Part shown: positions 1 to 38,132 of the stretch, one piece after another
Numbering within the stretch: the stretch's first letter is position 1
Layout of the letters: every line of letters starts with the position of its first letter
Assembly: GCA_000182565.2 (NCBI GenBank)
Contig: KQ257468.1
Strand: one strand, 5' to 3'
DNA length: 64,000 nucleotides
Source: Spizellomyces punctatus DAOM BR117
Lineage: Eukaryota
Program-made: the position numbers and the translations under genes
Notes under the pieces: model-generated
What the model was told of the DNA's origin: nothing
The model's database searches: none
The model's input: only the letters and a program-made list of their open reading frames with translations

Positions 1-704
1 ACACAATCCCGTGAAGTCAACCGAGAGTTCTCGAACGGATGCGATAGTAACTCCGATGATGATAATTGCGAGTGACTGAATGACAGGTTGCCGTAGGCGC
101 ACCGAATAGAGAGAATATTGAAGAATGGCGATGGTGGGAAGGTTGAGAATTTTTAGGAGCTATTATCACAAAAAATTCGAAAATGAAAACTGATGCTTAG
201 CGATGGAAGCCTTCGGAAAAGTTTCTGGCTTACCTGATATGCACCAACAGAGTTAGTGGCCAAACTCAAGTTCATAAAAACAATTCCTGCTGCATTCGTC
301 CCTCCCAGCATAAGCCCATCCGTGACATCAAGAAGCGACGAGAATTTTTGACCTGTATAAAAACCCCAACAGCTTGTAATGACCCATATGGTAACCTACA
401 AACAAAGACGTTCTGGGTGTATCAGACTCAAAAAGCAACCAATCGACCATATGGCACGTCGACAAACCTGGTGAAGCGCGGTTAAAATCAGTGGATAGTT
501 GAAGCTCTGCATCACTGCTTTGTTTGCCAGGACAATGAGAACGGTTGACGCAATGTTACCGATCATCCATAACCCTTTCACATATGGATCGTAGCTGGCG
601 GACACCCGCCACTTGGTGCCATTCCAGGACACTTTGTCTTCATGAGTCCGGGTGAAATCCGAGGCATTTTTGGGACCGTCGTAGTGCTTTCTCTCCTCAT
701 TCAT
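1..704 (-). CDS. Nucleotide-sugar transporter, TPT/SLC35E-like (3' end truncated by window edge; at least 2 introns)
   Basis: Spliced translation reads LWMIGNIASTVLIVLANKAVMQSFNYPLILTALHQ ... IVFMNLSLATNSVGAYQ|LLKILNLPTIAILQY, matching the NK...FP..LT..H and N.SL..NSVG.YQ..K motifs of TPT-family transporters. Confidence 0.85.
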
Positions 705-869
705 TGGATGTCTTGACTGTTTTGAGCATCAGATTCAACCGCGTGTTGGGACGTGTAAATAATTCAACGCGTATCACGTCAGCATCCATAGCATGGCCCA
801 CCTTGGGCTCGCGACGCGTTTGCTATTTAAAAGCGAATCGTCTGGCGGCTTGCCTTTGGCATCAAGATA

Positions 870-1963
870 ATGTTCGCCTCCGCACAAAATCGCCCACGCA
901 TCGGTCTCTTCTTGCTGGCAGTCTTTATAGCAGTCTGCTTCTTATGGTCCTGGCAGCCGCGGGGCCTTCAAATAGCACCAAATGTAAAACGAGAAACGCT
1001 GGTGCCGCGCAACCCGTCAAAGAGGTGAACTTCCCAGTAGGAGGCTTGAAAGCGAAGATATCACCGATTCTACGCCCGGACTGGTGTAACTCAAATGGAG
1101 AAAGGAGAATGGGAAAAGGAAACCTACATTAAGTGGGGAGTTCATTGTATGCATACCGTGCCATTCGTTCATATCTTGCAGTTTTCACAAGTACATTGAC
1201 TCGGAAACTGTCTTGGTGGATTTTGAACCTGGTGTGGTCCGACGGTACTGTTTGGTGCACAGCTTGCGAAAGCCACTATTGGTATTGAAGGGGATCCGGC
1301 CGCATTTGCCGAAGTATCATTCAACGTCAAGGTAAGATAAGTGATCGTACATTTCCGGAAGATGCCGCGAGAATCTCTGGTGCTCAACAAGCTGAATTTA
1401 GGCCAATGCGGAGCAAACGTGGAGCAAAAGAATTACTTTGCGCCCTTTCTGCGTGTCTGATGCGGCGGCACAAGTTCAAATGGAAAGTGACACTCCCGGA
1501 AATTCTATCTCCCATGTCGGCGCAACCCCAGATGGAAAAAACCTCAAAGGATGGACTTCACAGTGTTATCCACTGGAAACCATTCTGGAGGACGCTGGTC
1601 TCCTAATTCCGACCTCCAAGATGTTCATCAAGATTGATGTAGAAGGCTACGAATGCACAATCTTTCCGGTTTTGGAGAACGTAGGTGTCATTCTTCGAAA
1701 ATATTGCATCTATCTTGCAATTGTAGATACTGATCTACCTCAATGTGAACCAGTTTCTGTCAAGAATGGCAGTCAAACCCATAATTTACCTATCAACACA
1801 CGCTCATTTTGTGAAATGTACGGACGAGCAGTACCGCAAGATGAAGGAAATACTATCGACTTACAAGGTCTGGGGCAAGGTGTTGGGATCAGGCGCCGTA
1901 GCTCAAGGAGAATTCCTCGCGGACGGTGGGGCGATGCTGGCCACTGACACGTATCTCTTTTGA
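870..1963 (+). pseudogene. FkbM-family (Methyltransf_21) SAM-dependent methyltransferase with N-terminal TM anchor; frame-disrupted
   Basis: Reconstructed protein is MFASAQNRPRIGLFLLAVFIAVCFLWSW ... GEWEKETYINFHKYIDSETVLVDF/GTWCGPTVLFGAQLAKATIGIEGDP ... FIKIDVEGYECTIFP ... KPIIYLSTH. It needs a frameshift at ~1225, and there are in-frame stops at ~1025-1050 with no convincing intron. Confidence 0.75.
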
Positions 1964-2700: not shown

Positions 2701-4293
2701 ATGTATCTCTTTCTCTCAGCCTGTGCTGCCGGTCTCTTCCTCTTTCTTATTGTATCTACAATGCATTCCTCTCAGAAAGCTGCCTTATCAAAATTACCAC
2801 TGGAGACAGTCAAGTCACAAGGAGGAGCCATGGCTACATCGGACGAAGAAACTAGGTCCACGTCACCTTGTTCGAAGGAAACAAGACGAAAGGAAATTCT
2901 TGGTTCTACATTTTCTGATTGGGAGAACATGTGGGTTCGCGCAAATGACAACAGCATTCCGACAGTGTGGAGTGACGGAGGTGCTGGCTCTGGGGATGGC
3001 ACTCCGCCTGAGCCACTCGAAACAGCGAATACTGACAGCTGCTGGCCTGGGTGGTGCAACTTCTTCAATCCTACCGGTAAATGCCAGTGCTACGCCGAGT
3101 GTGTTCAGAAGGGAAATTGCTGCCCTGATATGCCGCAGGCGTGTGGCATGCAGCAACCTACAGATTTTGAATTGACGTTAAAAAATGTGTCTCTGTCCTC
3201 TATCGTCATCAGTTGGTCACCGACAGCATGTGAAAAGTTCAGAAACACGAGCCAGTTTGCTGTTGAATGGACAACGACGCCTGAAGGCAATGCGACTGCA
3301 CGCTGGTTACTGTTGCATAAATGGGAGTGCCCTGGGGAGACCTCCGCGCCGCTAAATGTTCAGCATGTGAATTTGGCTCCACACAAGCGATATCATTACC
3401 GAATGGTTGCCCAGAATACTTCTGGTTCATATCCCGTCTCCCAACATGTTTCCGTTGTAACGGCTCCTGTTTGTGCTATTGCTCCGCACTATAACGAAGA
3501 AGTCACTATACCGTTCCTGGTCAGCTCTCTAATTGATCACGTAGATTATTTCATCATTTTGGACAATGGTTCGACCGACTACTCTCTGGACTTGGTACAA
3601 GTTCTATATCCTCAGCATTTACAATCCGGCCGCCTGCGGATAATACTTACCGGCGCAGCGAGGGGAAATATGGGAATCGTGAGAACAATGGGCATCCAGC
3701 TCTCCCGAAATCTTGGATGCCGCTTTATGGTCAGTTTGGAGGCGGACTCTGTTTTTTACGATAAAGGGGCGGAAAGTATCACGGAGTTAGCGCGGAAGAT
3801 TCCCAGCGGCGTTCGATCTTTCCGGCATGTGTGGCTTGAGAGTATGCAGTTTGGTTGGAACACGACCGAGCAGTGGTTGGACGGAATGACCTTAATCACA
3901 CAGAAGAGAAATACCAGCGTAACCGGAGATGTCAGACGTCAAGCAGCTCCTGTTAGTGGAAACTATTTGTTACGTGTGCAAGGTGTTACTGCTCATGGTG
4001 CTTATTCCGACGAAGCAGCGGGACGTGGGGCTGAAAATTATTGGTATGGGAGCGACAGAAGAGGCGAGAATATTCTCTATGAGACTTGGGAGACTTGGCA
4101 TATCCATACCTCCCTATTGCGGCCTACTGACCGCAAGACTGAGAAATGGAAAGCCATGGGACGTCCTCCACAAGATGCATACACCTGGACAGATCCTACA
4201 GCGGTGCGGTTGAAGGTCGAAGAATTACCCGAAGCCTTCTACAGAATGACAGACGCTGTTCGGCGTATGTATTATGAGTTGCAATGCTCCTAA
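2701..4293 (+). CDS. Type II membrane protein: somatomedin-B domain + fibronectin type III domain + GT2-like glycosyltransferase (intronless)
   Basis: N-terminal hydrophobic anchor. SMB cysteine pattern SCWPGWC...CQCYAECVQKGNCCPD...C. FN3 pattern SIVISW...LAPHKRYHYRMVAQN. GT2 N-terminus APHYNEE...ILDNGSTDYS and a DxD-like EAD. Confidence 0.85.
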   Translation: MYLFLSACAAGLFLFLIVSTMHSSQKAALSKLPLETVKSQGGAMATSDEETRSTSPCSKETRRKEILGSTFSDWENMWVRANDNSIPTVWSDGGAGSGDGTPPEPLETANTDSCWPGWCNFFNPTGKCQCYAECVQKGNCCPDMPQACGMQQPTDFELTLKNVSLSSIVISWSPTACEKFRNTSQFAVEWTTTPEGNATARWLLLHKWECPGETSAPLNVQHVNLAPHKRYHYRMVAQNTSGSYPVSQHVSVVTAPVCAIAPHYNEEVTIPFLVSSLIDHVDYFIILDNGSTDYSLDLVQVLYPQHLQSGRLRIILTGAARGNMGIVRTMGIQLSRNLGCRFMVSLEADSVFYDKGAESITELARKIPSGVRSFRHVWLESMQFGWNTTEQWLDGMTLITQKRNTSVTGDVRRQAAPVSGNYLLRVQGVTAHGAYSDEAAGRGAENYWYGSDRRGENILYETWETWHIHTSLLRPTDRKTEKWKAMGRPPQDAYTWTDPTAVRLKVEELPEAFYRMTDAVRRMYYELQCS

Positions 4294-4345
4294 GGCAATA
4301 AGAACTGTAAATATACACAGAGTTCATGTATTAAGTATCTATGGG

Positions 4346-5377
4346 CTAGATTGTATTTTCCCACTCAGGACACAGTCGCGCAGCAGATGTCCACCATTCC
4401 AAGTACATATCCTTGAGAACAGGATGTGCATTCTCCCTAATTACACCGTTTGGGACTGTCCATGGTTTACCGTAGCGCCCTACATTTGCACTGAAATGGA
4501 CCACCTCCACCTCTTCTTCATATACGCGGCTTAGAGTGGTACGATTCTTTGCGGATTCCGCCGTCCAAAAGGAAGACCATTTGGGGACCGTTTCTGTGTC
4601 CCAATGATTATTCAACGTGACATACCGACCGGGAAGGAGCAGGACTTCGTTTCCAAACTCGTGATTGATCAAATCCATGTCGTATTCATTTTTCTCCAGG
4701 TTAGCAAGACGACCTTGAACCCTCTTCCAGAGTCGTGGTGATAGCTCGATAACCATTAGGGGTGAGGCAGCCCAACCGACCCCGCCACGTCCATCCGGTT
4801 GCTTGTCAACGCCGTGAAACTCTACATACCAATACGCGCGGGGTATTGCGATGTCGACGTGTGGCAATTCGAATAAATGGTCAAGATTCTTACGAACTAA
4901 TTGATCTGCATCTAATGTCAAGATTCTGGTGTACCCATATGTAGACAGCGAAAAGGCCAGAAGTTTCGTCATGACCTCCCCATATGTAGCAACATCATTG
5001 GGATTTGTCCCGGCAGGAGGTGGAGGAGGAGTAACGCTTACAATATGCGCACCGAAATGGGAAGCCGCCTTTTCGACGTACGCCTTTGGCACTTTGTCTG
5101 TTACAAGGAAAACGAATCGTATTTTTGAGCCCCATTTTCGAATCAGCGCCATGTTGATGAGCACTGAGCATGCATACTCAGTATTTGTGGCATAAAATAC
5201 GTATGCGTGGGACGAAATGGGCGTAGTGATATTGGGTGATATTGGTGAGTTCGGGGATATGTTCTTTGAAAGTGTCCACCTCGAAGGCATCGAGAAGGAC
5301 AGTAAAGCGAAAATTACCAGCGCGATAAGAGCAGGAAGCATGCCGTGCGGCTTTCCGCGTGTTGGGAGTATCTTCAT
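4346..5377 (-). CDS. GT8-family glycosyltransferase, GNT1/glycogenin-like, type II membrane (intronless)
   Basis: Motifs HAYVFYAT...Y.CS, TKLLAF...Y.RILTLDADQLVRKNLDHLF, PRAYW, YDMDLIN and VHFS...KPW. The likely start is MKILPTRG (5377), ahead of the TM segment; the ORF-track start further upstream is probably spurious. Confidence 0.88.
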   Translation of the reverse strand: MKILPTRGKPHGMLPALIALVIFALLSFSMPSRWTLSKNISPNSPISPNITTPISSHAYVFYATNTEYACSVLINMALIRKWGSKIRFVFLVTDKVPKAYVEKAASHFGAHIVSVTPPPPPAGTNPNDVATYGEVMTKLLAFSLSTYGYTRILTLDADQLVRKNLDHLFELPHVDIAIPRAYWYVEFHGVDKQPDGRGGVGWAASPLMVIELSPRLWKRVQGRLANLEKNEYDMDLINHEFGNEVLLLPGRYVTLNNHWDTETVPKWSSFWTAESAKNRTTLSRVYEEEVEVVHFSANVGRYGKPWTVPNGVIRENAHPVLKDMYLEWWTSAARLCPEWENTI

Positions 5378-5651: not shown

Positions 5652-8600
5652 TTAGTTTCTGAAGTCTGTCCGTACGTCTCTACGTCTTGCCAGCCATGAT
5701 GCCACAGCTATTTCTTCTAATATTCGCGCAACCATCTCATTTGTTTCAATGATCCCATCAACGAGGTCTTTCAGCGGCGTCAACCGCTCATTTGAATTGC
5801 TTTCATCTGGCAACAAGACGTCTTTCGCGTTCTTCTTATTCCATGCAACGACATTGAAGCCATTGAAGCTGCGTGCCGTTATTGCGGCAGCAACAATAGC
5901 TGGGTCGTCAGGAGAATTCGGTACGATGACCAAATCAGGTCTTACTGTCTCAATGACCTGCTGAAAGGACATCATCACCTCGGTTGCAATGTCAACAGCT
6001 CGAGATTTCCGTGAGAATTCCGATGCGACGCCAAGATCAAAAACGCCAGTGTGGAACGATTCCAGAGTCCATGAAATGCCCAATTCTGACAACAGTTGTG
6101 ACTGAGGGTAACGGCCTATTAGCACGGGGAACGGTCGTAATCGAATGTTGGGAACCGGCTTTTGCAAAGTAGTCGCCCAAATATACTCGTGAAGAGGCTT
6201 GAACAATCTTGCATCCTGGATCGTATCAACCAGGTACAGAATCCTCATTTCGTTCGGCCGCCACATTTCGGACATGAGAACGCGGGTATGGCCACGAGTA
6301 AAGTGCTTGAAAGTAATGTAATCTCGTAGTCTGTGTATATCCATCTCCTTACCGTTGACTGATATAGCGCCGTGTGTTGTGTCGCCGGAGGCTGAGATGG
6401 CACGATAATCAGGCGTGACAAGATGCGAGGATGGGTCACTGGCAGCAACCGGGAATACAAAAGTTGGTAGATTGGCGTACTTTGACAAGGTATAGGTAAT
6501 TTGAAAATCCTCGCCAGTCTCCCACGTAACTGCGTTTTCGCGGAACATGAGTTTGATCCAGTCTTTTTCCATAAACCAGATCCCCCCGACGAGGTCCACT
6601 TGCGTAATGACTTCGGGGTGTATCACTTGACCGAGACCATATGTTTCTTTGTAGTTGTTTGAGTTCTGAACAGGTACGATATGGCCTTTAGCGCCATACA
6701 AGCCTCGAAACTCCCCGCCTACAATATTCTGCACTGTTTTCATATGAGCGATCGTTATAGAATTGACAAGGTACCAAGCCTCGCTTACCATGGAGAAAAT
6801 TCCGAAAAACATTGGCTCCCGGCAGACAATCATCATCAAAAAAAACTGCATATTTGGTGGGTATCTGCAGCCCGACCTCGAATCGGCCAAAATATTTGAG
6901 CTGTACGTCGCCTTGAAGGAATTTGATCGGTATTTTCTGTGCTTTATGGCTATTAGCAAAGTCATCGACCGCCTGTTTGATTGCCGCGACTGATTTTGAT
7001 GCGAAAACGGTGATCCATATTTCGAGCGGTGGGACAGTCTGATTGAACAGGGAACCCAGCAAACGCGGGATCACCTCCACGCGATTGTAACCCGATATGA
7101 CCGCCGTAATTCCATTGAGCCCTTTGCCGTCACCATTTTCTGGGTACGAGGACGGCAGCTCCAGTAGTGCGGTCAAGTTCAATTGGCGCGGCTTTGTAGG
7201 TGCACGTACAAAAGACCGTGGTCTGGGCGCAATTGACGCTGCGGAAGTACTCTCACTGACGTTTGTTAGGGTGGTCTTAGCGGATTCAGCTTCCACAAGT
7301 TTGTCGCTCGCAATTGTGGGCCGATTTACAGCAATTTGGGCTAAACAATAATGTCAATATATTTCTTTGTGGACTATTACGCATGATTTTGATATTACCC
7401 GAACCCTTTAAGACAATATCAACAATTTTGCTCCCGGCAGTCCCATCCCCGTAGGGGAATGTCTTGATAGCCATTGCCGCGTAAGCTTGTTTATCAGTAA
7501 GAAGTTCTTGAACATGTCGGAAGACATTATCCTCGTCAGTTCCAATCAACTTCGCTACACCTGCTGTGACTCCTTCCGGCCGCTCTGTATCGTTTCGTAA
7601 CACCAGAATTGGTTTCGAAAAGGCCGTACCCTCCTCTTGAACTCCTCCAGAGTCAGTGAGCAACAGTGTCGCCCGCTTCAAAAGCTGCGCAAAGAATTCA
7701 TAGGATAACGGTCCTAGTAAAGTGATACGTTTATCATTGCCTAGGAATTGCGTAACGGTTTCCTGTACTGTAGGGTTCATATGAACAGGAAGTACAATAT
7801 GTACATCAGGAAATCCATCCACAATCCGCTTTATGGCCTTGCAGACGCTGATGAGCGGCGAGCCTAAGTTTTCGCGTCGGTGCATAGTTACGAGAAGGAG
7901 ACGGTATTGGCTCGTATGGGATTTTGCCGCTTCTTCAATTTCAAGCAGGCTAGAGGCAACCTCCGGCGAGGGCTCGAGGCTGGCCACCCATTGCAACGCA
8001 TCAATAACAGTATTCCCAGTAATGTACACATTCTCTGATGGTATTCCTTCGGCTTTCAGGTTATTTGCCGCATGCTGCGTCGGAACAAAGTGGTAGCTGG
8101 CTAGACCGGCTATGAGGCGACGGCTGGTTTCTTCCGGAAACGGGGAATACCTTTTGTATGTACGTAACCCAGCTTCAACGTGACCTACAGCTATCTTTTC
8201 GTGAAAAGCAACGACAGATGCTACGAAGGCCGAAGTCGTATCACCCTGCACAAGCAGCCAATCTGGGCGATAATGAGTCACAGCTTTGGTCATTCGCCCG
8301 ACGATTCGCTCCGTCAACGAGTTCAAACTTTGTCCCGATTTCATAACGTTCAGGTTAACATGTGGCTTGATATCGAATAAGCGGAGAAGGGGTTCAACCA
8401 TTTCCTGGTGCTGCCCGGTTACGCATATGATAGGGTTAATACCGTGAGTGTTGAGAGCTCTGATAATAGGAAACATCTTGATAGTTTCTGGCCGAGTGCC
8501 CATCACGATCATTACGCGAGGCGATTTGTTGAGTCCACCGTCATCGGGCAAAAGAAACTCGATATCCTTGCTGGTGACCCTCGATTGCGAGACAAGATGC

Positions 8601-8785
8601 GTGGAGGTGTCCAGAGAGGATACGAAGAAAATAAACAACAGGACTGTACAGGCAAGCAAGGCTAAAAGCCGAGTTCTGCGGGAAATCCGAATGGACCGTG
8701 GACTCTGTATCTCTCTCTTTGTAAAATGTAGTTTTTCATGATCAATCAGTATCTTAACTGTCTTAACAGGAGGGGTTTCCATCAT
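5652..8785 (-). CDS. Membrane-anchored UDP-N-acetylglucosamine 2-epimerase (WecB/non-hydrolysing type) fused to a GT-A (GT2-like) domain and a degenerate C-terminal epimerase-like domain; 2 introns
   Basis: Motifs GTRPE, TGQH, QGDT, HVEAGLR, PFPEE, HRREN, DSGGVQEE, TERPE and PYGDG. GT-AG introns at ~7398-7342 and ~6788-6736 join three ORF-track pieces in frame (...KGSAQIAVNRP... and ...NFLHVQNIVGG...). The GT part reads AVISGYNR...FFDDDCLPG...WETGEDF. Confidence 0.88.
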
Positions 8786-8964
8786 GATACGTTGCGGGAG
8801 AGCGAAAGGTCGTTGCCTTGCTCATCTGCGCTTGGAGATCTGCTTTTGTGCGGGTCGAAGTTGGCCCTGATCGGGCCCTGCTCTTACCTAATCTAACGCG
8901 TGCATAAGCCTCTGAAAAGCATAAAAGGCTTCTTGCAGCAAACAGAAATAACGACAACGAAACA

Positions 8965-10300
8965 ATGACCCGACGAAAAGCACTTTCCAACCAACTTGTT
9001 ATCGTTTTGGCTATATGCGCCTCCAGCGTCTGTTTCTTTTTCGCAGGCCCGATACTGATCCCACATAGTCAGATAGAAAAGGCAATTGACAGAACAGGCA
9101 CTTGACGTTCATTCATTGCTGAGGAGAGCTGACACTGGTACTATACTTGCAGCCAGAGGACGACCTCATTTCAGCTTCGTCTGCATGCAAATCTCAAGTG
9201 ACGCTAAGACGTGCCCCTCCGCGAAAGGTACCATTGCCATCAATTCTCCGATTGTATAGCCAAAAATAATCCATTGGCCGTCAATCAGGTGGTGGGAAGC
9301 TATTATGACGATTTTCTGAGGATCACCGCAAATATTATTGAGGTCTTGGAGAATAGACGATCGGGAGTAGCAGTTGCAAGGTAAAGAATTTAGCAGGGTT
9401 ATGTGATCACGGACGTCGATTGAACACGCGTTGGATTAGATATGGAGATGGTGAAAGGGAACTGATGCTAGGAGGCACCATTAAACCAGCTACACAGGCT
9501 GGGCAGGTACATGCATCTGTTGCCATTAGCACCTTGCATCTGCTCTAATGAAAAGCGTAGGTTGACAAGTGGTCATGGGAGAAGCCGGGCATCTCCTTTC
9601 TTGGTCGAGATCTGCTGGACACCTTGTCCTCTCACTATGATGAGCCATACTACTATGGGTTCGCTGCTCCTGTCCAAGATGCGAGCGGACTGAGATTTTT
9701 CATCAATGCCACAGGTAGCTATAGCAAGAATTTCCCGAATAATGATATATACCAGAAATCTCTGACGCCCTCTAATAGAACAGCACTTGGATTACATCAC
9801 GTTTGCGAACATATGGGTGAATGACAACTACAAACATACAAAAGAATTCATCAAAAAGATTGCAGAACAATACGCTGGCCGTATCGTCATTATCGCAAAT
9901 CATATTACAAAGGACAGAAGCTTGGTGCCAAGTTGGGCTTCAGAGTTTTTCTCAACTCCAGACGATTGCGTTGCCTTCTGGGAACAGAATCGTGACGAGC
10001 ATCTCGCAAAAATTGAGGCTCTCGGCCGCAGACATACACGTAAATTGTTTATGATATCAGCTGGCCCTATGGCTAAAGTATATGTGCATAAGCTCTGGAA
10101 CGTGAATCCGCACAATGCTATAATTGACTTTGGATCAAGTTTGGACGAAATACTCAAGGTAGTTATAACAGTATCCTTCACGAAAGCTGATCAAATTTAA
10201 AGTTTGATTATGCTACTAGGGAGAAACGACACGACCCTACCAATCCGCCAGTGCAAATGAAGTGGACCCAAGTTGGCAGCTTATACCGCAAACTATATAG
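8965..10300 (+). CDS. Type II membrane GT-D-fold (DUF1792/GT101-like) putative glycosyltransferase; multi-exon
   Basis: First exon MTRRKALSNQLVIVLAICASSVCFFFAG is a TM anchor. The spliced product contains VARYGDGERELM, FMISAGPMAKVY and IIDFGSSLD, matching the R(F/Y)GDGE, GP.AK and ID.G motifs of GT-D proteins. Splicing of the first 2-3 exons is uncertain. Confidence 0.7.
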
Positions 10301-12348: not shown

Positions 12349-14140
<1,792 letters not shown>

Positions 14141-20420: not shown

Positions 20421-20879
20421 ATGAACCGCCTCTTCACTGCCTTCACTTTCTTGGCTTTAGTGGCCCTAACTTACAGTGCCCCGGCCTCCGACCGACAGTC
20501 TCACCTGGTTGCACGCCAGTCCAACAGCAACACGAAATGCGAAGCCGATCCGTACCCAAATTTGAACGGCACGTTCCGTCTTCAGAACTGCACAGTCGAA
20601 TACGATAGGCAGCTGGCTAATTGCGACAACGCGACCAGTACCAAAGACTGCAAAGACGCTGCCAAGAGCCGTCGTACCCAGTGCGAGGCGATCTGCTCAA
20701 CAACTAGTCGCGCGGTGGAAAGATGCGTAAAGTCTTGCAACAGGAATTGGAAAACATTTGATGACAAGATTTGCAAGCCGATTACAAACGGAACGGATCA
20801 GGAATCATGCAATGATATAGCTCTCTCGCAGGTTTCCGCTTGTCAGGATATTTGTTTGGAATATCATAAGGGATTGTAG
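20421..20879 (+). CDS. Small secreted cysteine-rich protein (152 aa, 12 Cys)
   Basis: Signal peptide MNRLFTAFTFLALVALTYS-AP, pro-region ending in VARQ, 12 regularly spaced Cys, A-rich start context and TATAAA ~110 bp upstream. Confidence 0.85.
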   Translation: MNRLFTAFTFLALVALTYSAPASDRQSHLVARQSNSNTKCEADPYPNLNGTFRLQNCTVEYDRQLANCDNATSTKDCKDAAKSRRTQCEAICSTTSRAVERCVKSCNRNWKTFDDKICKPITNGTDQESCNDIALSQVSACQDICLEYHKGL

Positions 20880-24200: not shown

Positions 24201-24600
24201 CTTCACAGATTGAAACATAACAAGAACAAAAGGAAAAAAGATTTCGTCAAGCGAACGTTGTCCATTTACAAAGATCAAGTACCGCTGCATCTTGCATAAC
24301 CCCGAAACCAGCCGCCCTCACCTTGTCCCCAATATTTCTCCCATCCCTTTCCTTGTAAAGATACAGTGCATACTTTCTCAATTTAGGGATAGAGTGTACA
24401 AACGAATCTACACGGACGTAGTCCGGGTGCATGTACGTCATATGGCAACCTTTCGCATCCTGCGAGCGATTGAAAAACGAGTCCAGCGACAAGAGGAGGA
24501 GGGCAAGTGAGAAGGCAGCAAGGACGATAAACCGAGCTGGGATGCCGGTTGGACGAGGCATATGGGCATGAGCTGTCGGAAAGAGAGAACGGTTGGACAT
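21229..24600 (-). CDS. BST1: GPI inositol-deacylase (PGAP1 family); multi-exon
   Basis: Motifs GCHMTYM.P.Y, KYALYLYKE, GVPVLFIPGNAGSYKQARS, HSMGGIVAR, TLATPH, SIAGG..D and DHKAILWCNQ, followed by C-terminal TM helices. Confidence 0.93.
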
Positions 24601-27700: not shown

Positions 27701-27781
27701 GATGAGGAGGAGGAGGAGGAGGAGGAAGAGGAAGAGGAGGCAGATGGGATGCCAGGACCCAGTGGGTCACGTGTACCATAG
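24756..27781 (+). CDS. APL6: AP-3 adaptor complex beta subunit; multi-exon
   Basis: Adaptin_N motifs [60 protein letters not shown] and [12 protein letters not shown], plus FYAEDE and a long acidic C-terminal tail typical of beta3. Confidence 0.93.
27570..27741 (+). repeat. GAG/GAA/GAC-rich trinucleotide low-complexity tract encoding the poly-Glu/Asp tail of AP-3 beta
   Basis: Runs such as gaggaggaggaggaggaggaggaagaggaagaggag are visible directly. Confidence 0.9.
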
Positions 27782-28888: not shown

Positions 28889-31800
28889 TTATGAAGGGTG
28901 GTACCCAGGTAACCGTATCTGCTGCTCATAAGCATCCACATACCGTCTCTCGTCATTCAGTACCGTCGCAAGGGCGTTATAGATTGACATCTCGGATTCA
29001 TTCGAATTCGGACGAACATAGTCGTTTCCTGCTGTCAAGATGGCTGCCAATTGAGAACGGTGGCTGGACTTCTGCAGCACTTTTGCGGCACGTCGACGTA
29101 CATCGACGGGAAGAGAGGAGGTGCTATCGCATAGACTGAATAAGTCTGAAGCGAGTTCTGAGACGGTGTTTGTAGAGTTCATGTTTCGTAGTGGATTTCC
29201 ACTAGTTTCTGGCAGTAGAGAGCGGATGTCTTGAGAGGATACAACGGGGACGCCAGATGCCATGGCGAGGAGAGCCGTGTCTACGGATGACAATGAAAGG
29301 GCAAGGACGACATTGGATGCTGCAGCTAAGAGTCGGTACCGCTCGTCGGACATATACTCTTCTTCGAAGAAATTCACGACCTCGGAGCGTCCGGTTGCGG
29401 TCCAGGCTTGCCGCACGGCATTTTGAAGTGGTGTTCCTCTTAACGGCACCATGACCAGCGTGCGTCGTTTGAGTAACTTCTTTAACGCCAATGCAATGTC
29501 TACCACTTTCGAAGCATCAATAACGGTGCCAGTGTACGCTACAACACAGGCAGATGATACGCCTCTCTCCCCCTTGAAAACCGCCCTTCGTGCTGCATTG
29601 AGATCCCGCTTCGGTGAAAGATACATGATATTTATGCCGCGTTCCAAATGAAGAACGGAATCTGGCTTGCGCGCTCCGTTTCTTTGCAGGATGATGTCGT
29701 GCACATGGGGGCTTCCTGTCATGGTACGATAGATACAGTTTCCGTTCAACGCCGACATAGTCGCAAACCCTCCCGACCGCCAGCCCATGTCCGCCGCGTG
29801 AACATAGTCGAATACCGCCGTTTGCCTTGGTAGATGTGCGCACAATGACGGCAAAGCGTCGTACCCGAAAACGGATTCGGATATCAAGAGCGCCTGGATG
29901 CGTCGACTGTTTGTTAGGTACACCAAAAACCGAGGGAAATCAACAGTTCTTAAAAACATGGGAAGAACAAAAATGTCATGGGTGTACATGTAGTATTCCG
30001 AACGGAGTTCATCGGACTGGTTGAGCACCGCTACAACCGTAATACGCCAGCCTAGTCTGGCTAAATCGCCTACCATCCCCAAAATCCTTCTCCCAGGAAT
30101 ATCGCCGCGGAAGCTGTCGATAAGAAACAATGCACGTCGTTTCGAACTAGGTGCTACAGAATTCAGAAATGGCGGAAGCCATTCTATGCTCTCGAAGGGT
30201 TGAGAAGCGGGAATATCATGCGCGGGCCAAGTTTGCGGCCCTGAATGCTTCTCGTTGATATATGCATGGGTCTTTTCCCAGGCCTTACCAAAGTTGGACC
30301 AGTTGTGTCCAGTACCAATCCGGTACCAATACGAATATTCGGGTATAGTAGCTCCCCAGGAACCGCTTTCCGCTAGGCATAACCAAAAGTCGTAGTCCTC
30401 CCCTCCATGGGTCAGCACGGGATCAAAAATGCTGCAATTACGGGTTGCAGAGTGTCGTACCACCGCCCCAGACGGGACAGTATTCTCCTTCTTTAACTTG
30501 GATCCCATGTGGGGGCCAGCTAGGCTGATATCTGCGGATGTTCCAAAAGTGACCATGTACCAGCTGGCAATGTCCAAATGCGGGTTCGTCTCCAACAACC
30601 AAACAGCTTGTTCGTAAGCAACAAGTTCTCGTAAGTCATCGTCGTCTAAGAATGCCTGATAAGGAGTGTTTACCTGAAAAAGGGTTTAAGCCAAGTTACT
30701 ACGACATATGTTGCATTGCGTTTCAACTTTAGCTACATACGTGTTGAAGTGCAAACGTTCTGGCGGCCGATACACCGCGCTCCCCGGTATTATTTACTAT
30801 CGTGATGCGTGAATCCAATGCAGCGATCCGATTAAGCATTTCAAGGGCTTCTGGTTTATCCGAATGATCGTTGACAATGACCCACTTGAAAGCTTGGAGG
30901 CTCTGTTGTCGCACAAACGGGGTTGTTTCTGTCTCCAGAAGCGGCCGAGGATTCTGGGTCACTGTCAGAAGGGTGAGCATTGGCTTATCGGCAGCCGCTG
31001 CTGCTTGGGTGACGAATTGATTGCGTGGTCTTGCAGGATGAATTGGAGTTTGTGTATAAAAGGTGGAATCATGCAGTCGTCGAGGGCGTGCTTCTGATGA
31101 CACGCCAAAGGGAAATTCTTCGTCATTGCTCCAATTGTCCGTAATTATCTCTTCAGTATCTGGAAGCTTCTCGTTCCACAGTTCTACGTCTATCTCCTGT
31201 TCGCTGATGGTGTGCTCTGGCAGGTATCTTTTCAGATTGTCTCGGATGCCAAACATCCCATAGAATAAGCCCAGAAGAAATATCGTGCTTAGAAGCAAGA
31301 TGGACCCACGTTTCCTGTACGGTCTCAGATCCGTTCGGACTTTCTTTTCAGCTCTTTTGGGCCCCGGTAATACTTGTATCGATAGACCTCCGTTGTCCAC
31401 TGATCCGCGGATAACCTCATCATCATACGCCCCAGACAGGCCAGCCTCTCTGTGTATAATGTAGCTAGATCTAGCCACTCCAACGGCTATTAAGCCCATA
31501 CCTGTTGCCAGTAGCGGAGACATGGAAACAGCAGCGTCCGGAATCCATCCATATTCATGGGTGAAAAATGCTAATCCCACCACAATAATCGATTTTACAT
31601 CATCTAGGATTCCATATCTTGGGCGAACCGTGCTGCTGTGCCTTAAATTCAGAGCAGCAGGATGCCACATAGCGGTCAGGAGGCAGGTTATTAAAAACCA
31701 ACCCCCTATTGTGCCGATCTCAAATGCCTGCTGGAACTGGGATATGTAGCCTCTTCTACACAGGATCAGTAGCAAGCTGGAACCGGCTAGGATAACCGTC

Positions 31801-32521
31801 CGATGGTATGATATGGAGCAAGAGGTATCAGCTCCACCCGCAGCGCCGTCCTTAACGCGGCAGTCGATGTGTAGAAGTACCTTCAACAATATACCGATAG
31901 CAGTGATGAAAAGCGCAGTCGAGTCAATGCTATCGACGGAGCATTGTGTCGCGAGAGCAATACCGAGTAGCCAAATGGAGTGAAAGACAATGGAAGATGT
32001 GCCATAGCGAGATCGAACGAGCACATATCTCAGGATTGCTGCACAGGGCGTATGCAGCATCCACAGGATCTGGAAAACAGAGATCGGCAAAAGGGCGAGG
32101 GACCTGCGCATACAATCAGACACAGTTGAGTAAAGTGCCCATATTTTCAATACCGTGTCAAGATGGCCTCCCTTTCGAGAGAATGTCATCCTACTTACCA
32201 GTTTTCTAATACATCGCTAACAGCAGCCACCACACCCCGTAAAAATGGCGCCGAATGACTCTCAGTCGCTCCAGACAAGGCGTTTGTAAATGCCAGGTCA
32301 CACAGATGGCACGATAAAGAGACAAACAATGCGAGATCAAAGGTGAATTCTGCATCTGCCGAGGCGTAAATGAGCTTTCTAGTGAACACCTTGGCAGCAT
32401 TGGCAGCAATGTATCCGATAATTGCGGCGTAGACATGTCGGTGGCCTTCATCCTTTGATTGCATTTGCGAAACAAGAGTCGGATGCGCAGATGAACGCGA
32501 TCGCGTCGCGTTGGTCATCAT
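28889..32521 (-). CDS. Large fusion protein: N-terminal multi-TM transporter-like region + GT2 domain + degenerate GT4 (GT-B) domain; 2 introns
   Basis: Introns at ~32.2 kb and ~30.74-30.67 kb join three ORFs. About 9-10 hydrophobic helices precede GT2 motifs WVIVNDHSD, GVSAAR, AFLDDDD and GGEDYDFW. GT4-like segments follow: RALFLID...GWRITVV and LAMASGVPVVSS. Confidence 0.8.
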
Positions 32522-33431: not shown

Positions 33432-34956
33432 CTAAATGTTCAACTCCAGCGCAACAGGATAGTCCATCCCTTTTGCGGTGAGATGCGCGTCTATTTTCAC
33501 GAATGCATCCCAGATTTGTTTCTCCTTGGCTGTTAGCTCAGTCGGAATGCCAGCCGTCGCAAGGAGGCAGTCCGACCCGTCTGTGGTCCAGTCCAAATTA
33601 AATCCGCTCCGATCATTCATCCAAATGCTCGGCTGGGCGTGTTTGGATGGTGGAAGTTTTTGGGGAGTTCGTAAACCGTTGTTCACCCAGAGAAGTGCTC
33701 CTTGGTGGTCGCCATGCGCCAATTGTCTACCGCAGACCTATCATAGCCGGTTACTCCGGGTGCAAAGTTGAGCTCTTTGTCGACTTTACTTACTCGCAAT
33801 TTGTCCCCAGAGAATTGACCCATAGCACCTCCATATCCTGGGTTCCACGCGTAGGGTATCCCGCTCATTTCAAAACCTATCCAGAACGTTTCCTTATCAC
33901 CCCATACCCGCTGATAAACTTTACTAGCCCATGGTTTTGAATTTAGCAAGCATGCTGCTAGTAATCCTGGGAACACTCTTGCTTTGTTGATCACTACCAC
34001 TCCTGACTCTTGCTCATGTTGGCTCTTTCCATAAATATACCGTGAGCCATATGTTCGACTAGAAGGATTTGGAATGACAGATAGCAGCCATTGTAGATCT
34101 TTTGCTGACCCTACCCAACCCGAGGTCCGATCATGGAAAAAGACTGCACCGGTACCGATGTAGCCCGGGTGTGCGTATAATGCAGACGGATCTTTAAAGA
34201 ACACTGCATCAGCGTCCATGAAAATGGGCTCTGCAAAAGATGATGCTAGGAGTGCAAACGGCTTTGCTCCCCATCCGCCGTAGCCTGCAATTGAGATATC
34301 GATGACCTAACCAGGCAGTCTGTCAGCCTGGAGCAACTGCCTCATTGGATAAATGACCCCCACACAACCTTCGTAAGATCTTTACACTTTACGCCGGGGA
34401 TCTTTGCTAAAAGTTCACGGTTACTTGCAGAGAGATCCTCTTCTCCCATGTACCAGATTTCGATTGGAAGTTTGCAGCGGTGAACCAGACGCATCCCTAC
34501 AATCAAGGGATACGCTAGGGCCAAGTCGTGGTCTCCAAATGTATATACAAGCCCTCTTCCTTTTCCGCGTAACACGGAAATTTCATTTACGGGAAGCCAT
34601 GGGTAAAGCAAACGGATGGCGTCTTCGACTGGTTTTCTTGACTTTGAATATTGAAATGCGTTGCTAAATGCGAGAATACGCGCTCGCAAGTTTGGCATAT
34701 CTTCGAACGTTGTATTGAGCGGACTTTGCGAGAGTGGCACATCTTCCCATTTATATCCACTTTGATCGGCTACTGTGTCATCTTCTTGGGTGTAAAGGAA
34801 GCCTTCAGTAAGCTGGGAGGTGTCCTTGCTGTGTCGGAGCGACGATTTGCTACTTGAAGATGGCCACCATGATAGGAAAAGAAAGGTCGTTGCGATGATT
34901 AGAAGGAGAATTAGACGTCTGCGGAACATGATTCTCGACAGAGCAGAATGGTACAT
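33432..34956 (-). CDS. GT71 alpha-mannosyltransferase (MNN1/MNN2-like, Mannosyl_trans3); 2 introns
   Basis: TM anchor, then GRGLV, CKLPIEIWY.G..DL, GWGAKPFALLASSF.E..FMDADAVF, TGAVFFHDR, EQESGVVVINK, WGDKETFWIG and CGRQLAH.D...LLWVNNGL. Confidence 0.92.
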
Positions 34957-35137
34957 GACTGCTCTACTGGCCAAAGTCGCATTGGAAGAAGCTTTGGGTC
35001 GTTGCGCGTCACGAACGCGAGCAAAGTTTATTAGGTAAGCATAGTTGATAATTTTCAGGTGATGCGGTTGAAGGGCAAACAAGAAAATTGCTGACATGAA
35101 TCGTTGAACCGTCTTTTTGAACAAGAACATTGCTTGG

Positions 35138-36457
35138 ATGATGCGAGATGGTAAGTATCAAACGCAGACGCAATGGCAACAGCAATGGTCCTTTTCGAAA
35201 TTAACTCGCCGCAAAAGGGTATAAAAAGTACGGAGCTCTCGTGGCGCTAGCAGTGCAGAATATCGCCTCCGTGATGGTCATTCGATCGTCGCGAAAGTTT
35301 GGCCGTGAGAATGCGGTCGCTTCAACCGCTGTGCTATGCGCCGAGGTCCTCAAATTTATCGTATGCACCGTGGCTCACGTCCTGCGAGAGGAGTCGCGGA
35401 GTGCCTCGACAGTTATTGCAAAGGATATCTTTGGAGAGGATTCTGCATGGAAAATGATGATGGTCCCGGCAGCTTTGTATACGTTGCAGAACTGGCTTCA
35501 CTATTTTGCGCTTTCCCGTGTAGACGCAACAACACATCAGAGTGAGTAACACTGTCGGTTGGGGTACACTTGCACATTCCAATGGTTGATGTTGATGCTA
35601 CGTTGTTAGTCACGTTGCAGTTACGAATCCTGTCCACTGCTATATTCTCCGTTTTTATGCTCAAAAAGAGACTGTCATGGATGCAGTGGGTATCATTGCT
35701 AGTGCTAACTGGTGGAATGGCGCTAGTACAGCTACCTAGTGGAAATTCGGCTACCAAGATAGAGGCGGGGAGCAAAGCTGCCACCGACAGGCTCATAGGT
35801 TTGGCTGCAATAGCCCTTATTTGTGTGACCTCGGGATTTTCCGGGGTCTACCTAGAAAAAGTGCTTAAGCGGACAGCTACAACCTTATGGGTTCGCAACA
35901 TTCAGTTGGCATTCTTCAGCTCAATTTTCTGCGCCGTCTTTGGTGTGATTCTGCATGATGGGGCCGAGGTCGCTTCTAGAGGCTTCTTTGCGGGATATGG
36001 GTGGGCCACCATATGTGCGATACTGCTGAGTGCAGCAGGCGGACTTCTTGTTGCCATTGTCATCAAATATACAGGTACATTCCCTGCCTCAGTTCATTCA
36101 AGGCCAATACATTGTGCTTACCATCCCGTATGCCTGGTCCATTGCTATTAACCAGATAATATTGTAAAGAACTCGGCTATGGCCATCTCTATCATCACGA
36201 GCGGAGTGATATCGTCCCTCATTGGCGACTTCACACTAACGACGAACTTCCTTCTGGGTGGTATACTCGTGATACCATCCGTATGGATATACTCAATGAA
36301 TCCAGCACCTCCGCCACCTAGTAAGCTACTTCCAACCACAGCGATAGAACCATTCATTTTGAGAAGCATTAAAGTTCGTTCTTATAAGGTAGGGCTTATG
36401 GGAGACTTCCGTAAATTTCTTGTTTCTGTGATGTTGAAGCACGGATCTCAACTATAG
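35138..36457 (+). CDS. SLC35A-family nucleotide-sugar transporter (UDP-Gal/UDP-GlcNAc/CMP-Sia type); ends approximate
   Basis: Motifs STAVLCAEVLKF, VPAALYTLQN.L, QLRILSTAIFS, SGFSGVYLEKVLK, LWVRNIQLA and GGLLVAIVIKYTDNIVKN. Confidence 0.9.
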
Positions 36458-36891
36458 GACTGAAGCCGGCCAGCTACACTGTACATACATATTATTAAAT
36501 TGAGCGAGAATTAGAAGACATGCCGCACACTGTGTTCCATTCCTGTACTCTTAGTACCTATACATATTTCGAGCTCATGGGCAGACAAGGATTTCGTGTG
36601 TAACAGACATATTTAGCTGAGGGCTTTGGTGTCCTCGCATATCAAATTGAATATCACAGTACTGCCCTAGCATATGCGTGTTATATTGAGGATTGTGTAG
36701 CGCACGGTCAAGGACTTCAGCCAACATCAAGTTGAAATAGTGCGCGAATACTTTCGGCCATGCTGGGTTAAAAAAAGCGATAGATAAGCGTTGACCTTCA
36801 CTGTAAAGGGTGCTCAAGATATACATGGTGCCGTGAGGCAAAGAATGGGTTTGATCGTATTCGGAAATATACAGATATTTACAGAACTTGG

Positions 36892-38132
36892 TTAATTTGG
36901 TTCTGGGTTCACACAATACTGGTCAACGCCACGGAACCAATTATCAAATATTCGGCGATATAGCGGATGCGCTTCTCCATGGACCGTCCGGTCTGCGATA
37001 TACCAGGGCTTTCCAAACTGGCCGTTAGGTTGTTCACTGAAATGGACGGCATACGCTGATCTGGCCGCATCTTCTATGGTTTTGTATGGTATATGTGATG
37101 ATTTATCCGTCGGGTTTCCACGAAGGTGCCCATTCAGAATAATGGTACCAAAAGGAAGAATTGACATCCGATTACGGTAAAGGTAGTTAATCTAGCAAAC
37201 GCACAATAAACTCAGATCTAATCAAACGGGCATGTATCTTCCAACAAGACTTACGACGTGCATGCCAAAGGCAGAATTCTTCTTCTTCACTCGGTCGGTA
37301 AATTCATTTTTAATTTCGAGCAAAGTGGCTTCCAGAGGTGTCAACACCATCATGCAATTTGTCACCCAGGGCTGCTCTGCTGTGAGCCAATGTGCTCTTG
37401 GAGCGTAGAGAAAATAATCCGGTAAATCAAAGAACTCGTCCATATTTCTTAGCGGGTACATATCAGTATCCAGGTAGACAATGCGGTCGTACTGTGTCAG
37501 GTTGAATATGAACAACATTGTTATGGAGTGTTCGTACAAGCGTTGGGTCGGATGGACATCCGTATATAGCCATGGAGCGGTTGGGATGAGTTTGACGTTG
37601 GCCAGCTCAAAGTTTGTTGCGATACTCTGGCGATACTGCCTCGTTCATTGCAACAAAATCTACCGATCCTCAGTGTCCTTGAGAGCCTGATTGACCACGA
37701 GCGCGTTGCAGGTGTATCTTTGCACCACGACCGGTATTGATTAGCTACTGTGTTGAAAACTAGAGAATGGTAATAGAGAAATCCTACCTGTCATTTGTCA
37801 GGTAAAATGCATACGCATGTTTGCTTTGTGGCCGGCAACCAATTGGAGGGTGCTGGAATGGTGTCCCAAGTGGGCTTGACAAAATCTCGCCCGAAGTGGT
37901 CCACTTTTTGGCGCGAGGACATGTCCGCATTGTATAGCAGCACAAAAATGCTAGTGGCTCCTCCGGCTGCACCGCTTGCAGCCCTGAGGCGGTAGAAGGA
38001 GACCGATCCTTGTAGATTTGTCTGGACGGCAAAGATGGCAAATGCACAGAGGAATGCAAATGCAATCTTGTGCGCAAGGTACTTTTGCCGCAAGCACCCG
38101 CGAAAGGAGTTGATGGTTGTTCTTGCTTTCAT
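36892..38132 (-). pseudogene. Second GT8 (GNT1/glycogenin-like) glycosyltransferase, disrupted
   Basis: TM anchor, then HAYAFYLTND, FNLTQYDRIVYLDTD, APRAHWL and VHFSE...GKPW. There is a frameshift near 37820 and in-frame stops/indels at ~37640-37665, and the conserved TKL reads TML. Confidence 0.78.

Follow-up and report, generated by a model that had tools for sequence, protein, structure and literature searches.

In the synthesis of wall teichoic acid (MnaA/WecB with TagA/TarA) and of enterobacterial common antigen (WecG), a bacterial epimerase is genetically tied to a dedicated transferase for N-acetylmannosamine (ManNAc) or its uronic acid. Transferases of the TagA/TarA/WecG type use undecaprenyl-linked acceptors at the cytoplasmic face (PMC9804384). 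Here we describe a similar tie that appears to exist in a eukaryote, in a stretch of 64,000 nucleotides (the window) of contig KQ257468.1 of the chytrid Spizellomyces punctatus DAOM BR117 (assembly GCA_000182565.2). Two adjacent genes encode a membrane-anchored epimerase fused to a glycosyltransferase (GT) and a GT-D-like protein, SPPG_08156. The chytrid transferases differ from TagA, TarA and WecG in having predicted GT-D and GT-A folds and not that of family GT26, and their predicted site is the Golgi lumen. Together the two genes appear to hold the three domains of a widespread, uncharacterised prokaryotic cassette, with the fusion partner swapped. They lie in a 38-kb run of glycosylation genes that an original prediction, made from the same DNA, had taken for a polysaccharide cluster organised like a bacterial capsule locus. 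On balance we think it probable that this cluster is built around a prokaryote-type cassette for ManNAc use, set among genes for secretory-pathway glycosylation.

All 150 stop-to-stop open reading frames (ORFs) of at least 100 aa across the window were scanned against Pfam. So were those of 60-99 aa that lie between 1 and 20.5 kb or between 28 and 40 kb, 150 out of 151 (39706-39939, minus strand, was omitted). Gene models came from a crude intron-aware gene finder with fixed signals; the three that were compared with annotated proteins agreed with them except for one acceptor site, which was off by 15 bases. The fusion gene (SPPG_08155; 5652-8785, minus strand, three exons) corresponds to the annotated 1006-aa protein KNC96568.1 / XP_016604608.1, which tblastn placed at 100% identity on 5655-6734 and 6790-7341 and at 98.9% on 7379-8785. 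The protein begins with a 35-residue basic-rich tail and a transmembrane (TM) helix (residues 36-55), followed by the epimerase domain (about 90-460), a linker, a GT-A domain (about 540-800) and a Rossmann-like domain (about 805-1005). Its AlphaFold2 model has a mean predicted local distance difference test score (pLDDT) of 84.8, with values mostly above 90 in residues 90-460 and low confidence in the linker.

Pfam Epimerase_2 matches the epimerase domain at E 2.9e-102 (342 bits), and the domain scores above the cut-off of the wecB equivalog TIGR00236 (435.6 bits; cut-off 210.15) and below that of the hydrolysing NeuC model TIGR03568 (71.1 bits; cut-off 235.9). The best PDB sequence match is Staphylococcus aureus MnaA (5enz, E 5.7e-103), which aligns end to end, with few gaps and with the conserved blocks retained. 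The model has the two-domain, GT-B-like epimerase fold along the entire domain: in Foldseek, E-values for 3beo, 5enz, 7vza and 1f6d ranged from 1e-33 to 1e-37, and template-modelling scores (TM-scores) were 0.8-0.95 by target length. The solved MnaA/WecB structures are 40-45% identical to the domain, and 3beo reaches a TM-score of 0.93 by target length at 45% identity. Epimerases were the only matches in this fold search of the whole fusion, the GT-A and C-terminal domains remaining unmatched. We predict that the domain is a non-hydrolysing UDP-N-acetylglucosamine (UDP-GlcNAc) 2-epimerase of the WecB/MnaA type.

The GT-A domain of the fusion is a probable GT2-like transferase. Relatives such as P0170 (35.5 bits) and P0125 (31 bits) pass the Pfam GT2 cut-off. 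Its DDD motif aligns with that of bacterial relatives, and its model shows an alternating strand/helix pattern. The fusion itself is no artefact of annotation, because a 999-aa orthologue in Spizellomyces sp. 'palustris', annotated independently, is 94% identical across the full length. An exhaustive search of 1.84 billion representative proteins with the last exon of the fusion as query returned 199 relatives at E<=1e-3. Epimerase_2 was found in 12 of the 25 best relatives scanned, and 11 of those 12 had a GT2-type match too. Among the 12 of 150 listed relatives that were looked up, members of the fusion family included proteins of two Spizellomyces species, Thoreauomyces humboldtii and the testate amoeba Pyxidicula operculata. 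The T. humboldtii model begins at the very end of the epimerase domain; one of two P. operculata transcripts has both Epimerase_2 and a GT2-type match, and the other has no Pfam match.

The C-terminal Rossmann-like domain of the fusion (5652-6250, residues about 805-1005) is modelled confidently and is absent from all 38 prokaryotic loci described below. The Thoreauomyces relative has a faint match to the N-domain of Epimerase_2 in its C-terminal region. A PDB sequence search with the C-terminal exon gave nothing useful.

The neighbouring gene, SPPG_08156 (8965-10300, plus strand), is transcribed away from the fusion gene, head to head with it. The start codons (8785, minus strand, and 8965, plus strand) are separated by a 179-base spacer (8786-8964) that we presume to be a shared promoter. 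The gene has several exons, the last at 10220-10297, and encodes an anchored protein of 321 aa. Invariant motifs (R-x-x-D-G-E, a SAGPM-like motif and DFGSS) are common to SPPG_08156 and its relatives, and D98, G99 and E100 of the GDGE segment (the DXE motif) are invariant in 7/7 and in 32/32 sequences. GT-D enzymes are defined by D-x-E as a metal-binding motif (PMC9804384). The AlphaFold2 model (pLDDT 75.8, above 90 through most of the domain) matched only 4phr, 4pfx and 5v4a at E<=1e-3 in Foldseek (E 4.5e-8 to 1.4e-6), and the next matches were the ManNAc transferases TagA/TarA at a probability of 0.97. A PDB profile search built on 32 relatives placed three DUF1792 entries on top (E 0.0075 and 0.059), and a PDB sequence search with the GT-D exon returned nothing useful. 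The Pfam GT-D-like family PF22882 matches across almost the whole profile (7-209 of 210). On this evidence, SPPG_08156 is predicted to be a distant glycosyltransferase of the GT-D fold.

The link to prokaryotes comes from the relatives of this second protein. A large protein set held six of them, one a 566-aa 'GT2 family' protein from an Anaerolineaceae metagenome-assembled genome (MAG). The Anaerolineaceae protein P0284 matches the GT-D protein in its N-terminal half, at 36% identity, and the fused GT-A domain in its C-terminal half, at 28% (E 7e-23). Five more proteins from an earlier search have both GT-D and GT-A domains. When the GT-D alignment was scanned against one genome per bacterial and archaeal species, 38 loci were found; they belong to at least 10 bacterial phyla and to one methanogen MAG. 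In 33 of the 38, a single uninterrupted frame encodes GT-D followed by GT-A. The sequence retrieved for 19 loci includes a WecB whose identity to the chytrid epimerase is 35% or higher, and in 15 loci the distance is within 1 kb. Among loci with enough flanking sequence, 13 of 24 have WecB. Examples include RJP50333.1 (Anaerolineaceae MAG), Collinsella aerofaciens DSM 13712, Selenomonas sp. GACV-9 and a Spirochaetia chromosome.

Cassette and chytrid proteins are 30-36% identical in the GT-D domain, 22-31% in GT-A and 37-46% in the epimerase, and the DXE and DxD-type motifs are the same. What differs is the way in which the domains are joined. The prokaryotes have a GT-D/GT-A fusion of about 530 aa and a separate WecB, whereas the chytrid has a WecB/GT-A fusion and a separate, divergently transcribed GT-D gene. 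The chytrid proteins have, in addition, N-terminal anchors, introns and the extra C-terminal domain.

The neighbourhoods of three of the 38 loci (43 ORFs) were annotated. The Spirochaetia locus carries a Wzt/TagH-type ABC ATPase, an FkbM methyltransferase, a dehydratase resembling GDP-mannose 4,6-dehydratase (GMD), and a sugar O-methyltransferase, together with genes of families GT2 and GT4. A Wzx-like flippase accompanies GT2 and GT4 in the Collinsella locus, and the Campylobacteraceae locus has PglB, heptosyltransferases, GT8, GT2 and GT4. By their gene content, all three are surface-glycan loci. As a separate observation, the GT-D and epimerase genes of L001 (a Methanocorpusculum MAG) and L004 (a Bacteroidales MAG) are nearly identical, with tree branches of 0.03-0.16, and in both the GT-D domain has no GT-A domain after it. 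This near-identity reflects either a very recent transfer between domains of life or mis-binned contigs.

That the product contains ManNAc had been proposed in the original prediction, and it now stands as a well-founded prediction, because the same three domains (epimerase, GT-A and GT-D) travel together in prokaryotic surface-polysaccharide loci. We regard this cross-domain pattern as the strongest evidence that the chytrid pair would work together with UDP-ManNAc as donor, and the most likely role of the core formed by the two genes is to add ManNAc in the secretory pathway. Several results weigh against this interpretation. Because the bacterial cassette is itself uncharacterised, the ManNAc link rests on gene neighbourhood, and the fetched stretch is without WecB in 19 of the 38 loci. 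The fusion's own GT-A exon falls short of the Pfam GT2 cut-off (E 1.2e-3; 19.2 bits, cut-off 23.3). The PF22882 match is likewise below its cut-off of 27 (20.8 bits for P0279 and 17.8 for P0280; E 2.7e-4), no Pfam model reaches its cut-off on SPPG_08156, and the TM-scores to the DUF1792 structures are modest (0.41-0.51). Given a fold match to DUF1792 but a Pfam score below cut-off and weak PDB profile E-values, we place SPPG_08156 in a distant GT-D-like subfamily. Finally, no other gene of the window has a relative in the 38 loci (E<=1e-4), so only the core mirrors bacteria; even within the prokaryotic set, relatives of the FkbM and GMD-like genes of locus L010 occur in just two of the 38 loci each.

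In the mechanism that we propose, the basic tail before the single TM helix would place the catalytic domains in the Golgi lumen, following the positive-inside rule. UDP-GlcNAc would be imported by a transporter, for which the SLC35A-type gene of the second block (below) is a candidate. It would be converted in place to UDP-ManNAc, to be used at once by the fused GT-A domain, the GT-D partner or both. The two transferases may add ManNAc and probably a second sugar, so that an acceptor linked to protein or lipid would receive a short repeat or a disaccharide. The anchored GT2, both GT8 proteins, the GT71 and the GT2/GT4 protein could plausibly lengthen or decorate this glycan or related ones, and the GMD with its adjacent transporter could supply a GDP-6-deoxyhexose.

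A different placement of the epimerase has to be weighed against this mechanism. The enzyme could be cytosolic and supply UDP-ManNAc or ManNAc elsewhere, for example to a sialic-acid-like sugar, with the GT fusion incidental, and the UDP-GlcNAc 2-epimerase family does feed sialic-acid routes in other organisms. However, the domain scores as wecB and stays below the cut-off for the hydrolysing NeuC, and the two Pfam scans showed nothing like NeuB or NeuA. The basic residues stand immediately in front of the TM helix, an arrangement that points to a lumenal catalytic part under the positive-inside rule. A tie to two transferases that is conserved across domains of life also argues against an incidental fusion. 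A cytosolic enzyme of this kind is scarcely to be expected here, and a lumenal source of UDP-ManNAc remains our preferred reading.

As to origin, many bacterial WecB proteins share 42-52% identity with the epimerase domain, and its closest relative is an anchored protein at 54%. In a quick epimerase tree of 53 rows, the Spizellomyces pair and two other proteins (approximate likelihood-ratio support, SH-aLRT, 99) fall inside a bacterial group (89), with other fused forms placed elsewhere. Transfer from bacteria is the economical reading because the distribution is wide in prokaryotes and patchy in eukaryotes. Two results speak against it: the backbone of the epimerase tree is weakly supported, and in a GT-D tree of 32 rows the chytrid pair and one more protein fall outside all 28 prokaryotic rows, on a long branch. 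Most likely, we suggest, an ancestor of the Spizellomycetales acquired the cassette from bacteria, and introns, anchors and the C-terminal domain were gained later.

The weak epimerase backbone and the long GT-D branch rule out naming a donor. Transfer of the whole block from bacteria can be dismissed on the distribution of its other genes across the 38 loci, including that of the L010 FkbM and GMD-like relatives, already given. Contamination is likewise ruled out by spliceosomal introns, host-like G+C and ordinary eukaryotic neighbours on a 511-kb scaffold. The introns are short (about 55-95 bases) and of the GT-AG type, the G+C of the window is 0.43-0.50, and the scaffold that carries the fusion gene measures 511,319 bp. 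The annotated proteins KNC96568.1, SPPG_08156 and SPPG_08162 map back to the window at 98.5-100%, which bears out the zoosporic fungus assumed in the original prediction. An exact look-up of four single-exon ORFs of the window returned no entry.

The core lies in the first of two blocks of glycosylation-related genes (glyco-genes). Golgi glycosylation genes in fungi are normally scattered. The original prediction counted 13 such genes in two blocks; they are present where it had placed them and ten have statistical support, but three (the FkbM-like gene, the second transporter and the 'GT-A' gene) are weak. Its further claim that these blocks (1-18.3 kb and 28.9-38.1 kb) hold no other recognisable gene agrees with our scans, the remaining long ORFs scoring as non-coding by codons. 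Glyco-genes make up about 13 of the 17 genes to the left of 38.2 kb and none of about 13 to the right (Fisher p 2e-5, or 1e-3 if only ten are counted); the genes on the right include RING, MatE, SUMO-ligase-like, ABCA, CoaE, AlkZ-like, PIH1 and MOZART1 genes, among others. With about 9000 windows and an assumed, not measured, background of 3%, the expected number of 17-gene windows with at least ten glyco-genes is 9e-8. Recent tandem duplication does not explain the density, because the two GT8 genes are just 26% identical. We conclude that a cluster of secretory-pathway glycosylation genes is real and unusual.

Block 1 opens with a TPT-family transporter of the nucleotide-sugar or triose-phosphate type (1-704, minus strand), the 3' part of which is cut by the start of the window. 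Its exon at 1-159 matches Pfam TPT below the cut-off (E 9.1e-5; 22.4 bits, cut-off 30), and hydrophobic segments are present. Beyond the FkbM-like frame, treated below, lies a single-exon gene for an anchored protein of 531 aa (2701-4293, plus strand) that combines somatomedin-B, fn3 and GT2 domains (Somatomedin_B 2.6e-4; fn3 1.4e-7; GT2 1.1e-7, 32.4 bits) behind an N-terminal hydrophobic segment; a PDB sequence search with its catalytic part gave nothing useful. Tail to tail with it is the first GT8 gene (4346-5377, minus strand), with an N-terminal anchor and a Glyco_transf_8 match just over threshold (2.6e-5; 24.4 bits, cut-off 24.3).

On the far side of the core, a GMD gene of about eight exons (12349-14140, plus strand) has GDP_Man_Dehyd matches on four of them (2e-15 to 1.2e-24; 57-88 bits). 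Its best PDB match is human GMDS (6gpj, 9.3e-27), and it is of the ordinary eukaryotic type. No gene for the step after GMD turned up in the window. An ordinary GMD with no such partner leaves the 6-deoxyhexose of the original prediction no more than possible. Adjoining GMD is a multi-TM protein (16968-18318, plus strand; gene models) with four hydrophobic segments. TIGR00950, at E 6.7e-3, is its only match to the drug/metabolite transporter (DMT) superfamily, and a PDB sequence search gave no match; it is probably a DMT-superfamily sugar-nucleotide transporter and may resemble GDP-fucose transporters.

Block 2 begins with SPPG_08162 (28889-32521, minus strand; exons 28892-30682, 30738-32129 and 32198-32518), a 1155-aa protein with multi-TM, GT2 and GT4 regions, whose annotated form (P0276) is 100% identical to the query exon. 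Pfam GT2 (5.8e-12, 46.3 bits), Glyco_trans_1_4 (3.2e-3) and NCBIfam TuaG (7e-11) match it, and an atlas placement puts it among bacterial GT2/GT4 proteins (0.93, all clusters bacterial). In its sequence it resembles the two-domain polysaccharide GTs of bacteria. The N-terminal part had been described as a fused transporter-like domain. A multi-TM domain is indeed present there, but its kinship with transporters is not significant: blastp aligned 75 aa with the window's TPT gene at 32% identity (E 3e-4, against a database of just 35 proteins), hhalign gave a probability of 4.3% (E 0.0095) against TPT and nothing against the other two transporters, and there was no Pfam match. Spizellomyces sp. 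'palustris' has a second copy resembling SPPG_08162 (P0278, g07996; 51% identical) on another contig; the same search found none for S. punctatus.

A GT71 gene of the Mnn1-type mannosyltransferase family (33432-35097, minus strand) matches Mannosyl_trans3 on two exons (8.1e-29, 101 bits, and 1.4e-4) and has hydrophobic segments at residues 56 and 338. It stands head to head with an SLC35A-type nucleotide-sugar transporter gene (about 35205-36457, plus strand), with less than about 180 bases between the likely starts (35097-35274). The transporter has at least three exons, which together span 6-315 of the 315 positions of the Nuc_sug_transp profile (2.5e-19, 3e-55 and 1.1e-9; 70, 188 and 38.3 bits; cut-off 27). 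Its start codon is not settled, because the conserved domain starts upstream of the first in-frame ATG. The SLC35A family carries UDP-GlcNAc, UDP-Gal or CMP-sialic acid. Of the three transporters named in the original prediction, this one is firm and the TPT gene has moderate support, but the second is weak. Last comes a second GT8-like gene (36892 to about 38170, minus strand), multi-exon and anchored at the N-terminus, which is paralogous to the first (blastp, 26% over 209 aa, E 7e-17) and has weak Pfam GT8 and GT71 matches and, by eye, an N-terminal GT8-type motif.

Type II anchors had been claimed for nearly all of the enzymes. They can be upheld as single N-terminal hydrophobic anchors in at least six, four from a hydropathy scan and two by eye. 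The scan gave a single N-terminal anchor in the GT2, the GT8 and the epimerase-GT, but in the GT71 protein it is one among other segments; those of the GT-D protein and the second GT8 were judged from the sequence by eye.

Two members of block 1 look broken, which weighs against a single pathway. The FkbM-like frame (about 1200-1947, plus strand) contains an ORF (1402-1944) with matches to Methyltransf_21 (E 3.7e-3) and TIGR01444 (E 2.2e-3), both below cut-off. Its presumed N-terminal S-adenosylmethionine-binding region (about 1215-1340) is split between two frames near 1215-1240, and a donor-like GTAAGA marks its end; a frame shift in this gene is possible. So weak and apparently disrupted a frame does not establish the O-methyl groups that the original prediction gave to the product. 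The GT-A-like candidate (14678-15589, minus strand) has an in-frame TGA at 15005-15007. The ORF before it (15008-15589) has a positive codon score, with a DxD-like motif by eye, and after the TGA come 15 coding-like codons in frame, a 66-base GT-AG intron and a 72-codon exon. It is either a pseudogene, an assembly error or a gene with a shorter product. Its atlas score of 0.84 is a lead only. Nothing significant was found for it in Pfam (also with the stop read as X), NCBIfam, PHROGs, PDB or a phage tblastn, nor by hhalign against two GT-A alignments.

These two defects raise the question of whether the region is the decaying remnant of an old gene transfer that yields no product any more. Stretches of about 2 kb without coding signal (10.3-12.3 kb and 15.6-16.9 kb) fit such decay, as do the TGA of the GT-A-like gene and the frame shift that the FkbM-like N-terminus would require. 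However, the core genes are long, intact, spliced frames with confident models and with their invariant catalytic-type motifs retained, their proteins are 88-94% identical to sister-species counterparts, and both defects could be assembly errors. Decay is, in our judgement, highly improbable, and a working core remains the likelier reading.

Between the blocks lie genes of other kinds. A PGAP1/Bst1-type inositol deacylase of glycosylphosphatidylinositol (GPI) anchors (21417-24290, minus strand; PGAP1 2.3e-63) and an adaptin with an acidic tail (25590-27781, plus strand; Adaptin_N up to 6.8e-23) are not counted in the pathway. A GAG/GAA-rich imperfect repeat at 27605-27744 codes for the long acidic tail of the adaptin. 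Upstream of these are an acidic ORF (19086-19490, plus strand) and an ORF (20382-20876, plus strand) for a possible secreted cysteine-rich protein, which starts like a signal peptide and contains many cysteines and several N-x-S/T sites; it is a doubtful gene, since by codon score it looks non-coding. To the right of block 2, ARAGORN and Rfam identify a tRNA-Leu (anticodon AAG) at 42785-42868 (minus strand). An intron-less ORF of 470 aa (58762-60171, minus strand) contains an AlkZ-like DNA glycosylase domain (Pfam E 1.6e-36). The AlkZ-like family is known mainly from bacteria, and this ORF is possibly a second bacterial-type gene in the window.

Whether the two blocks act together is a separate question from the role of the core. 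The blocks are separated by six locus tags here and by 17 in Spizellomyces sp. 'palustris', and no promoter word is common to nine upstream regions (no more than in shuffles); both results tell against a single unit. In that species the GT2/GT4 gene of block 2 shares a 138.6-kb contig with the epimerase-GT and GT-D genes, and the proteins of the latter two have consecutive accessions, evidence that their adjacency is kept. The region may instead comprise several unrelated modules, one for ManNAc (epimerase-GT and GT-D), one for a GDP-deoxyhexose (GMD and transporter) and one of mannan type (GT71, SLC35A and GT8), which would feed different N-, O- or GPI-linked glycans and have come together by local duplication, shared chromatin or chance. 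This would agree with the wider spacing in the sister species and with the missing promoter word, as well as with the PGAP1 and adaptin genes that split the blocks, the ordinary eukaryotic GMD, and GT71 and GT8 as common fungal Golgi families. It would agree, too, with bacterial counterparts for the core trio only and with a tight head-to-head or tail-to-tail arrangement that is seen within pairs and not region-wide. However, at least ten glyco-genes among about 17 neighbours is far above a plausible (assumed) background, and every class of enzyme that a single polymer would require is represented, from donor synthesis through import to transfer. We give separate modules a minor but serious share of our expectation, and still favour a cluster built around the ManNAc cassette.

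At the other extreme, the whole 38-kb region could be one Golgi 'capsule-like' pathway. A bacterial ManNAc polymerase cassette with a lumenal epimerase would have been joined by fungal enzymes of families GT8, GT71 and GT2, by three transporters and by a fusion of transporter and GT that passes donor directly to its own catalytic domains. The product would be a ManNAc-containing, deoxyhexose-decorated surface or secreted polysaccharide, and sister cassettes would exist in microbial eukaryotes such as Pyxidicula. We consider a pathway of this scope unlikely, more so than separate modules; if it were true, it would be the first ManNAc glycan and the first such Golgi polysaccharide gene cluster in fungi.

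To our knowledge, ManNAc has not been reported in fungal glycans. The core predicts its presence in one, with UDP-ManNAc made in the Golgi on the same polypeptide as a transferase, and suggests a type of sugar polymer that is so far undescribed in fungi. In the existing annotation the core genes are a 'UDP-N-acetylglucosamine 2-epimerase' and a 'hypothetical protein'. The unusual features are the Golgi-type cluster, the predicted lumenal epimerase fused to a transferase and the core shared with prokaryotic loci. Because Golgi glycosylation genes are not usually grouped, so dense a cluster offers, unusually, a ready set of candidate genes for a single glycan in a fungal lineage about which little is known. 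Conversely, the cross-domain link provides a first functional hint for a GT-D/GT-A cassette found in at least 10 bacterial phyla and one archaeal MAG.

Our literature searches found no publication that names the locus tags and none on a chytrid UDP-GlcNAc 2-epimerase. They returned nothing relevant on UDP-ManNAc in fungi, in eukaryotes or in the Golgi, on chytrid GT clusters, or on stage transcriptomes or the zoospore coat of S. punctatus. The original prediction had proposed a zoospore coat, an adhesive or a cyst wall as the place of the glycan; these searches turned up neither expression nor chemical data bearing on that. In one supplement of a gene-transfer survey of early-diverging fungi, the accessions KNC9655x-9658x do not appear (PMC11291939), and the main text of PMC3652786 gave no GT count for S. 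punctatus. S. punctatus is transformable (PMC7213984), and the predictions are therefore directly testable.

Among described enzymes, streptococcal DUF1792/dGT1 (4pfx, 4phr, 5v4a) has in common with SPPG_08156 the GT-D fold and the DXE motif. The resemblance is distant, with an identity of 17-18% besides the TM-scores already mentioned. The enzyme dGT1 glycosylates a serine-rich adhesin in the bacterial cytoplasm. It is described as bifunctional (PMC5063993).

Among fungal co-located gene sets, the nearest likeness is the galactosaminogalactan cluster of Aspergillus, described as five genes for a surface or extracellular polysaccharide (PMC4817252, PMC8224951). The original prediction had held that the content of the chytrid cluster is different, and this is borne out by the lack of any glycoside-hydrolase or deacetylase match in the two Pfam scans. 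The galactosaminogalactan genes encode a UDP-glucose 4-epimerase, a large membrane synthase, a deacetylase and two glycoside hydrolases. No protein of more than 1,200 aa was modelled in the chytrid cluster. The Aspergillus cluster, in turn, is without a ManNAc route, nucleotide-sugar transporters or a Golgi-type set of anchored GTs.

A proposed ManNAc polymer is known from Escherichia coli, where the NGR glycan depends on WecB and the glycosyltransferase NfrB, with UDP-ManNAc as precursor (PMC8669472). That system differs in its inner-membrane machinery, controlled by cyclic di-GMP, and in the outer-membrane protein NfrA; such parts are absent here. The likeness to a bacterial capsule locus that the original prediction saw holds in one respect, in that the core shares its domains with prokaryotic surface-polysaccharide loci, but parts for initiation and export are missing. 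No initiating phosphoglycosyl transferase, Wzx/Wzy, ABC exporter or outer export component was among the Pfam matches of the 300 ORFs. The chytrid cluster therefore shares with capsule and O-antigen loci the co-location of donor synthesis and transferases, and is not a member of that class.

Plants and animals have type II anchored enzymes that interconvert nucleotide sugars in the Golgi lumen, such as UDP-xylose synthase and UDP-glucuronate epimerases. We know of none that is fused to a transferase or makes UDP-ManNAc, and the enzyme families differ. The shared principle is that a common donor would be imported into the Golgi and converted there, beside the transferases that use it.

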